Positions 39,070 through 39,931 of a stretch of DNA of 64,000 nt are shown here, one piece after another. Location of the stretch: positions 9,590-73,589 of the IMG/VR virus record IMGVR_UViG_3300020047_007062. One strand, given 5' to 3'. The position numbers and the translations under genes are program-made. The DNA is from a virus. Lineage: Duplodnaviria > Caudoviricetes. Position 1 is the stretch's first letter. Every line of letters starts with the position of its first letter. The notes beneath the pieces are model-generated. The model had not been told where the DNA came from, did no database searches, and was given only the letters and a program-made list of their open reading frames with translations.

Positions 39070-39176
39070 TTTTAACTACCGCAATTTATTAGATGATATG
39101 GATGAATAAATAAACGCAAGTGTTATTTTGGTGATTATTAGGTTTTTGACTTTGTGAAGTTGCGCCTATCTGCGAG

Positions 39177-39389
39177 TTATACGCAATTTGGAAACCGTTC
39201 CACAAATGCTTTCAGTATCTTAGGTAAATCAATTTCATAAATCATTGTGTACTCTTGTTCACCTTGTTCTTTTTGAAACTTCTGTGTTTTCCACCATTTC
39301 CATATTTCAACATTATCAGGAAAACTGCGTATAACATCGGTTTTGTGCAATGCCGAGTTCTGTGCTTCATTCAAATTTTGTTCTTTCAT
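39177..39389 (-). CDS. cassette-borne hypothetical protein
   Basis: 70 aa; the start lies within the hairpin loop and both 10-bp boxes are coding. Confidence 0.65.
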   Translation of the reverse strand: MKEQNLNEAQNSALHKTDVIRSFPDNVEIWKWWKTQKFQKEQGEQEYTMIYEIDLPKILKAFVERFPNCV

Positions 39390-39454
39390 TTTACTTTAGT
39401 TTTAAATTAAACATTTGTGCATTTTAATTCGGCACTGCACAAAGCCGAGAACCG
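39177..39454. mobile_element. integron-like gene cassette B
   Basis: G|TTATACGCA (39176-39185) is the exact reverse complement of TGCGTATAAC (39326-39335); 20-bp arms 39337-39356 and 39429-39448 (18/20); G|TTACCC at 39454. Confidence 0.75.
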
Positions 39455-39931
39455 TTACCCAATTACCCAAAATACCACATACATCATTACGGCAAGCCCG
39501 AAGAAGGTTACCCTCCCGCCAACCGACAAATCCCACATGGCTGTCCCCTGTCCACTCGGTTCCGACCACCATCCCCTCCTATAAACCATAGGATTTAACC
39601 AATTCCTGAATGTGTACAACATCCCATCGTGGAAGAAGGGGAACGACAATATCGCAAACACCCCATGCCACAACATCCAATCGGGGAAAAAGAGGACAGC
39701 CCAAACAAGTCCCCTCGTGGCCATAAACCATGTGTGTTCATTGGTGACACAATCAACAAACCAATTACTGCCCTCCCACAACCCCGCCCAATGGTCAGCC
39801 GCCTTCCCTTCGGGGGATTGCGTTAGGTTACGGGAATGGGGATTGTATAGTTTGTGGTATAGGATGGCCTCCGCGATGGCTGATACCAACGCGAATAGGA
39901 TAAAGATGAATATTTTGTACTCCCCGATCAT
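39455..39931 (-). CDS. membrane protein
   Basis: 158 aa, several TM helices, His/Trp-rich. Confidence 0.65.
   Translation of the reverse strand: MIGEYKIFIFILFALVSAIAEAILYHKLYNPHSRNLTQSPEGKAADHWAGLWEGSNWFVDCVTNEHTWFMATRGLVWAVLFFPDWMLWHGVFAILSFPFFHDGMLYTFRNWLNPMVYRRGWWSEPSGQGTAMWDLSVGGRVTFFGLAVMMYVVFWVIG

Follow-up and report, generated by a model that had tools for sequence, protein, structure and literature searches.

The locus lies in a 73.6-kb phage record from IMG/VR (IMGVR_UViG_3300020047_007062; Duplodnaviria, Caudoviricetes) that is 77% complete, from which a stretch of 64,000 nucleotides, here called the window, was taken for analysis. At its center is a 278-bp unit, cassette B, in which a small minus-strand gene (the cargo) and a hairpin site are framed by two complementary boxes, and which is flanked by a docking site on one side and a backbone gene on the other (Table 1). 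The inverted boxes, the hairpin around an AT-rich loop and the G|TTA junctions at stop codons (the bar marks the junction) that made up the original prediction are all present, and direct reading confirmed that the ATG lies inside the loop and that the first residues of the cargo protein, through ...ALHKTDVIRS, come from arm and box sequence.

Table 1. Features of the cassette B locus, in window coordinates
Feature	Position	Strand	Comment
Backbone promoter of GroEL-like gene, Bacteroidota type TTTG-N20-TAAATTTG	39038..39069	(-)	pattern scan
Rest of inserted AT-rich island	39077..39108	(.)	relatives diverge at 39076/39077
Docking site, attI-like, 68 bp, ending ...AAGTTGCGCCTATCTGCGAG|	39109..39176	(.)	second copy in window
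Left junction G|TTA and start box (rest of R')	39176..39189	(+)	TTA doubles as cargo stop codon
Cassette B	39177..39454	(-)	278 bp; hairpin site, box, cargo gene and complementary box
Cargo gene, 70 aa	39177..39389	(-)	~22 site-derived leader residues and ~45-aa conserved core
Cassette-specific box beside hairpin (R''-like), ...TGCGTATAAC	39322..39335	(+)	inverted copy of 39176-39189, 13/14
TAAC...GTTA hairpin recombination site, attC-like, 126 nt	39332..39457	(+)	arms 39337-39359 / 39426-39448
AT-rich loop with start codon ATG (39389-39387) and untranslated leader	39360..39425	(-)	direct reading
Backbone gene, 158 aa	39455..39931	(-)	stop codon TAA is the right-hand G|TTA junction
Sister locus: second docking site and cassette A, 71-aa cargo	44736..45169	(-)	window comparison

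The boxes read GTTATACGCA at 39176–39185 and TGCGTATAAC at 39326–39335, and a repeat search extended the pair to 13 of 14 positions. The same kind of search gave hairpin arms that are complementary at 20 of 23 positions with 66 nt of AT-rich sequence between them, and the hairpin leaves AT unpaired on one side and AGAACC on the opposite side. On the right, G39454 is followed by TTA at 39455–39457, the stop codon of the open reading frame (ORF) at 39455–39931, and on the left, TTA at 39177–39179 is the stop codon of the minus-strand ORF at 39177–39389. All of this falls in an AT-rich island (39025–39460) with a GC content of 0.33 against 0.50–0.59 around it. Taken by itself, the box word is unremarkable, with 4 matches at up to one mismatch against 2.8 expected, and the fold of the single DNA strand beats shuffled sequences only moderately (z = −2.8 and −3.1); since box word and fold are weak on their own, the case that the arrangement exceeds chance rests on the comparisons with other loci below. 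A pattern scan of the 64-kb window found one TAAC...GTTA hairpin of the cassette B type. An Rfam search of the hairpin site returned no family at threshold, with generic hairpin microRNA models far below it, and neither a sigma-70-like promoter nor an intrinsic terminator was found at the cassette site, the loop included, which has no promoter-like motif. By inspection, the cassette end and the docking core at 39157–39189 resemble a two-arm site with a 6-bp center (TTGCGTATAAC / TCGCAG / ATAGGCGCAAC), a layout reminiscent of Xer core sites.

The second copy of the docking site, at 44736–44807, is 73% identical to the first without indels and stands beside cassette A, which reads GCGAG|TTGTGTGCA ... 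GCACACAAC, hairpin, ...CGAACG|TTAC. Relatives of the backbone delimit the inserted DNA at the cassette B locus. The GroEL promoter is conserved in two of them (L024 and L026) and marks the end of the island, and L024 and L025, which carry another insert, as well as L026, which is empty, diverge from the window at 39076/39077 and 39455/6. In three contigs encoding a 96%-identical version of the 158-aa flank protein, a different insert replaces 39077–39455, consisting of two small ORFs in both contigs long enough to show it, and in a 67% relative the stop codon of the flank gene runs straight into the GroEL promoter. The docking site, or landing pad, is not ancestral backbone, as relatives have either an empty junction without the pad or a different insert; the lack of docking site and cassette in near relatives indicates that the docking site itself was acquired. 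On these comparisons, docking site and cassette together are an insertion at a hotspot. That the closest backbone relatives are without the docking site counts against the reading preferred below, which does not account for its arrival. Pattern searches for the docking site gave no related copy outside the window's genome: in IMG/VR there was no match, and the five matches of a looser pattern in JGI metagenomes were set aside as unrelated, GC-rich chance matches. An IMG/VR search for close relatives via the 158-aa flank gene also came back empty. The stretch at 36067–39024 encodes a GroEL-like chaperonin (519 aa; Cpn60 family, PHROG 'chaperonin groEL'), which is followed by small co-oriented genes that had earlier been read as GroES-like.

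Cassette B also occurs in surroundings other than those of the window. Four metagenomic contigs (L096–L099) hold a unit of exactly 278 bp that is 88–92% identical to it and encodes the closest homolog of the cargo protein (91% identical), while their flanks are unrelated to those in the window, at 52–64% identity by global alignment, which is the level of unrelated sequence. In all five contexts, window included, the junctions on both sides of the cassette read TAA|C, which is G|TTA on the other strand. Another hairpin site lies directly downstream of the cassette in three of the four contigs, and in L096 the downstream sequence is docking-like, with the core TAA|CT....GATA.GCGCAA that is common to both docking sites of the window. 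The original prediction of a 278-bp cassette bounded by G|TTA was confirmed by this same-length unit in five contexts, and it had further implied that relatives should vary at the G|TT points, which is exactly where they do. Judged by its exact length and ends, cassette B is a real swappable one-gene unit that has moved between contexts.

Contigs from public sequencing runs were compared in the same way; these data are contigs and not reads, and bins that they leave uncovered are no evidence of absence. In them the hairpin is found at 600–1100x depth, with loose ends at 39331/3 and 39457, and contigs break at 39175/6 and 39457, while a cassette copy with 93% identity stops at 39176 and a contig of run X6 breaks at 39076. 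Other content at the docking site, which had been proposed as something to look for, is found in contigs of two runs, where the docking site is followed by two other sequences, from 39179 in X2 and from 39187 in X3. In a contig of run X1, the backbone gene at 39455–39931 is joined at 39452 to other sequence. Neither the circular form of cassette B nor an empty docking site was seen in these contigs. An X3 contig that skips the loop (39354–39429) was taken as an assembly effect at the palindrome, its short side being 23 nt.

The cargo protein has 172 homologs, which share a near-invariant core (~45 aa, FPDNVEIWKWW...LPKILKAF) and differ in their N-termini. Nine of the ten substitutions in the 93%-identical contig copy are at third codon positions, a bias indicating that the cargo is a real protein, which by this measure is under purifying selection. 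Profile searches gave no Pfam and no PHROG match, the protein atlas gave no usable match, exact-protein look-ups of the cargo and of the 158-aa flank protein found nothing, and the AlphaFold model, with a mean pLDDT of 62, was too poor for a fold search. As the cargo is often found beside DNA methyltransferase cassettes, our guess is an accessory or anti-defence role. As a separate observation, on metagenome contigs with the P0021 cargo (L100–L103) the homolog stands among rows of methyltransferase genes (two N6/N4, D12 class, C5 class and SpoU, together with a Sequestin-family gene), and the downstream neighbors vary among contigs that are otherwise identical.

The only stretch for which blastn found a match in cultured phages was 39324–39457, the match covering the 5′ end and leader of DNA methyltransferase genes in Flavobacterium Muminvirus. 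Phage snusmum and the window translate this shared hairpin DNA in different frames, so it is the nucleotides that are conserved. Seventeen IMG/VR contigs contain the arm motif in its exact form. With a degenerate version, 41 genome contigs matched; ~20 of the matches are true hairpin elements, located in Bacteroidota or in phage contigs that were misbinned, another ~11 lie within a single conserved gene, and 8 are due to chance, in other phyla. Across the family, the site keeps a constant length of 123–128 nt from TAAC to GTTA, these two ends are invariant, and the unpaired AT and AGAACC are conserved. When 24 distinct members were aligned, 94.9% of cells were paired, against 36–44% with the partner slid, and 10 of the 19 stem pairs showed compensatory changes. 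This covariation shows selection on the hairpin, and it fits a DNA hairpin and an RNA hairpin alike, between which it cannot tell. Like an attC site, that of cassette B is an imperfect hairpin in which the R''/R' and L''/L' boxes complement each other and some bases stay unpaired. Because our hairpin finder requires exact TAAC and GTTA, it misses sites such as that of cassette A (CAAC), and the array counts given here are lower bounds.

The boxes were followed across loci in the same manner. Of 15 independent viral loci, 10 have a reverse-complement copy of the 11-nt hairpin-side box 250–1300 nt upstream with at most one mismatch, and 3 more match at two mismatches; the measured chance rate is 0.023 per 4 kb. 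The box sequence (10–14 nt) varies between cassettes yet complements the start of the same cassette: GTTATACGCA in the window, GTTAGCCGCA in filifjonk, GTTATACACA in snusmum, GTTAACCGCT in Muminvirus block A and GTTAGCGG.. in the P0011 version of the cassette B cargo each have their complement at the other end. The methyltransferase gene of filifjonk, for example, is bounded by G|TTAGCCGCA ... TGCGGCTAAC, hairpin, ...GAACCG|TTA, and that of snusmum by G|TTATACACA ... TGTGTATAAC, hairpin, ...GAACCG|TTA. Complementary box and box' at a G|TT crossover are shared by cassette B and no fewer than 10 further cassettes. Covariation of this kind shows selection on box pairing, and the start box complements the hairpin-side box as would be expected if the two meet in a circle.

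Between the boxes, the cargo differs per locus and includes N6/N4 methyltransferases, a Thg1-like protein and small proteins without known function. In 13 of 13 cassettes the site is upstream of the ORF and the cargo reads away from it in one direction, the mirror image of the polarity of integron cassettes. Many cargo ORFs have their start in the loop and continue across the arm as M..N(P/T)HLHKTDV, while at other loci this peptide forms a short ORF of its own. The idea that the site doubles as translation leader was in this way borne out beyond the window, and the putative leader role is a trait of the whole family. Many cassette starts are preceded by the end of another hairpin (...ACG|TTA), so these cassettes form arrays. 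Not every exchange follows this plan, however: the cargo and box of cassette B are also found with a different hairpin type (P0021), and the hairpins of block A are not the same in two Muminvirus species. Neither swap would be expected from a model with one crossover point, at G|TTA, and the two together suggest that exchange seems to occur on the TAAC side of the hairpin as well, or that homologous recombination adds to the shuffling. Two further loci are worth recording. L065 (G006:C27) has five cassettes at 582–3152 with a spacing of 611–612 bp and near-identical hairpins, and in at least one of them the start box disagrees with the hairpin-side box of the same cassette, suggesting that similar sites have exchanged DNA. 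In L020, a cassette at 538–1561 combines the window's hairpin type with a 274-aa cargo that by its sequence motifs looks like tRNA-His guanylyltransferase (Thg1-like).

Cassette loci were also compared in cultured phages, with genomes of Muminvirus and Lillamyvirus (L001:900–3400, L113 and L114). The Muminvirus genomes are 98.9–99.6% identical in shared blocks and differ in the presence of an 893-bp methyltransferase cassette and in block order, which is A-M-B-C in filifjonk and B-A-C in snusmum, with every junction reading ...ACG|TTA. The boxes of snusmum block A match each other (GTTAACCGCT and AGCGGTTAAC). From the comparison of these genomes, cassette turnover in Muminvirus is recent. The Muminvirus paper reports 15 methyltransferase types across 35 genomes with a link to plating efficiency, and tentatively ascribes host-range differences to methyltransferase content, without mention of cassettes or hairpins (PMC7077304).

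An enzyme for such exchanges was searched for in the phage record and at the related loci. The record (73.6 kb, 77% complete) has no tyrosine recombinase (no PF00589 match), no Y1 transposase (no PF01797 match) and no homolog of the array recombinase described below, and a complete Muminvirus genome has no tyrosine recombinase either. Only 2 of 16 related viral records, most of them fragments, encode a tyrosine recombinase, and the two enzymes are unrelated; that of L006 (322 aa) was rejected as the system's enzyme, having no homolog in any other locus compared. On phage contig G014, six hairpin sites, one of them of the window's type, each precede one gene, and a co-oriented tyrosine recombinase of 269 aa, at L089:3631–4440, comes after them. 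Its best NCBIfam matches, to XerA, XerD and XerC, all miss their cut-offs, and its match to the integron-integrase model is in two pieces and reaches 154 bits where 265 are required. Pyrococcus XerA can be aligned with it over the full length, and around the IntI-specific segment it has 22 residues, versus 65 in VchIntIA. A 169-kb phage contig (L111) encodes a 76%-identical enzyme; nine sites lie within 6 kb on its upstream side, and the 6 kb on its downstream side have none. Four loci share a conserved 45-bp site, placed after TAA|C and immediately ahead of the recombinase gene, while the box before that junction varies. Arrays adjoin a short Xer-like tyrosine recombinase at G014/L108, L111, G005 and G006:C33, and not in the window's record or in Muminvirus.

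Chromosomal sites were found in G005, a complete Bacteroidota MAG chromosome (CP058707.1), with at least 22 sites over 3475742–3628932 and three more over 3967412–3980955; they fall into two length classes, about 89–90 nt and 123–127 nt, and ~130 kb of control sequence scanned for comparison held no hairpin site. The best recombinase homolog there (37% identical) borders the region with sites: it is located at 3.986 Mb, and the 20 kb that follow hold none. The sites of G005 spread over at least 150 kb and possibly up to 0.5 Mb, which would make a very large chromosomal cassette region. Together, these loci support, but do not prove, an association between arrays and the recombinase. A 303-aa recombinase at 3.406 Mb of G005 was discarded as the array enzyme, as no hairpin sites lie nearby. 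No sites were detected in the stretches examined around the recombinase homologs of G007:C2, G007:C14 and G009:C5, and clustering of neighborhood ORFs at 34 loci returned no recurrent family except the cargo. In L087 (G006:C33), 135–1168 hold a Fic-type toxin gene (HPFREGNGR motif) and a small upstream partner ahead of a 127-nt hairpin site, and an apparently frameshifted homolog of the array recombinase lies ~1 kb beyond that site.

Our preferred reading, which we consider likely, is that cassette B is a promoterless mobile gene cassette belonging to an integron-like site-specific recombination system of Bacteroidota and their phages. We call it integron-like and not a classical integron because the Xer-like enzyme at related arrays is without the IntI-specific segment. 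Read on the gene strand, the mobile unit consists of the 126-nt hairpin (TAAC to GTTA), a 10–14-nt box, the cargo and a complementary box ending in the TAA stop. It would be excised as a circle in which both boxes meet and lengthen the hairpin stem, the circle junction reading ...GAACCG|TTATACGCA... (the hairpin end joined to TTATACGCAATTTGG). Re-insertion could proceed by exchange of strands within the GTTA that the partners share; beside another hairpin site this would build arrays, and the alternative target would be a double-stranded docking site such as 39109–39176, which when unoccupied would read ...TATCTGCGAG joined to TTACCCAATTACC. The catalyst would most likely be a small Xer-type tyrosine recombinase acting in trans, from the host or a co-infecting element: the phage record encodes none, and its solo cassettes, each at a docking site, point the same way. 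For expression, transcription would read through from the phage gene upstream, and translation would begin at the ATG in the unpaired part of the hairpin, the AT-rich loop, so that the site would supply the first ~22 residues. We infer the circle, the cleavage point within GTTA, the folding of a single strand and the source of the enzyme from sequence; the exact cut within GTTA is beyond the resolution of such data.

Three other readings were weighed against this one. The original prediction invoked an IntI-like recombinase, and a classical integron cassette, in which IntI integron integrase recombines an attC site, would account for the complementary R''/R' boxes, the imperfect hairpin with unpaired bases, the G|TT crossover and a length of ~126 nt like that of Vibrio cholerae repeats (VCRs); classical integrons have also been reported in Bacteroidota (10.1101/2022.02.06.479319). 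We nevertheless think this very improbable, given that there is no IntI in the 73.6-kb record and that the recombinase at related arrays is of Xer type, falling below the integron-integrase cut-offs (154 vs 265 bits), without the extra segment and XerA-like from end to end. Moreover, the site stands before the gene and not after it, and the R box is variable beyond GTTA in place of the GTTRRRY consensus.

The hairpin could instead be a portable regulatory element, a leader or RNA structure, with genes shuffled by homologous recombination between its copies, as has been suggested for promoter stem-loops in T4-type phages. Its loop does contain the ATG and leader, the leader peptide is conserved, the conserved 126-nt repeats would be good substrates for homologous recombination, and one cargo is found with another hairpin type. 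We consider this reading unlikely, however: at one end of the cassette, box'-TAA|C has no homology to its varied neighbors, yet the junction is base-exact in five contexts. Box complementarity covaries across the cargo, which neither an RNA leader nor homologous exchange requires, the leader region is read in different frames, the loop is without a promoter-like motif, and arrays end at a recombinase with a conserved adjacent site. A hairpin with a fixed tetranucleotide is also what a transposon-like element moved as a single strand by an HUH enzyme (Y1, IS200/IS605-type) would show, and the invariant four-base target (GTTA/TAAC) and the absence of a target duplication agree with it. This origin is barely credible, however, for a unit with a single hairpin where two different end hairpins would be expected, in a record with no Y1 transposase, with flanks that hold no recurrent protein family other than the cargo, and in a family whose arrays abut a tyrosine recombinase.

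The integron-like cassette system that we favor has several known counterparts. Sedentary chromosomal integrons (Vibrio cholerae repeats, with attC sites of ~123–126 nt) and CALINs likewise consist of promoterless single-gene cassettes with an imperfect hairpin and boxes split at G|TT. They share the arrays, the solo cassettes without an integrase and, in complete platforms, the docking site beside a recombinase gene, as well as a cargo rich in DNA methyltransferase and toxin–antitoxin genes. In integrons, attC is downstream of the cassette ORF and expression comes from the platform promoter next to attI. In contrast, the site here is upstream of the gene and supplies its start codon, the enzyme is a 269-aa Xer-type recombinase without the IntI-specific segment, located at the array's downstream end and co-oriented with it, the outer box is variable beyond GTTA, and the carriers include lytic phages. 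CTX phage, whose hairpin attP on folded single-stranded DNA is integrated by XerC/XerD, and the Xer-dependent dif modules of Acinetobacter plasmids are alike in that a host Xer-type enzyme acts in trans on an element without its own recombinase, and the CTX hairpin also mimics a two-arm core site with a short central region. Those elements target chromosomal dif sites or pairs of pdif, however, and are not known to build arrays in which each one-gene cassette has its own complementary boxes. T4-type phages have promoter-early stem-loop regulatory cassettes that are thought to act through homologous recombination; they resemble the present case in their conserved stem-loops before small accessory genes, in hyperplastic regions and in shuffling between relatives, but they carry a promoter, whereas none was found here and the junctions are site-specific. 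A full-text literature search found no description of a TAAC...GTTA cassette system, and what is new here is the integron principle with a different enzyme and reversed polarity.

With more reserve, we lean towards a wider interpretation, in which these cassettes belong to a phylum-wide, IntI-free analogue of the integron that runs on a minimal, often host-supplied Xer-type enzyme, with cassettes passing between chromosomal mega-arrays and strictly lytic phages and with the hairpin serving as a portable translation start that provides the first ~20 residues. A tyrosine recombinase with the IntI-specific additional domain around patch III is defining for integrons (10.1101/2022.02.06.479319), and the same logic carried out by a plain Xer-type enzyme in lytic phages would widen the concept. 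To this, the present locus adds a cassette that can be followed base for base across five genomic contexts, a phage that has no recombinase and carries solo cassettes at a docking site, and a link to cultured Flavobacterium Muminvirus isolates. The latter would be a ready experimental model, as cassette gain, loss and order differences among near-identical genomes make the system testable at the bench. If true, such a system would explain the fast swapping of anti-restriction methyltransferases and small accessory genes in Bacteroidota phages.
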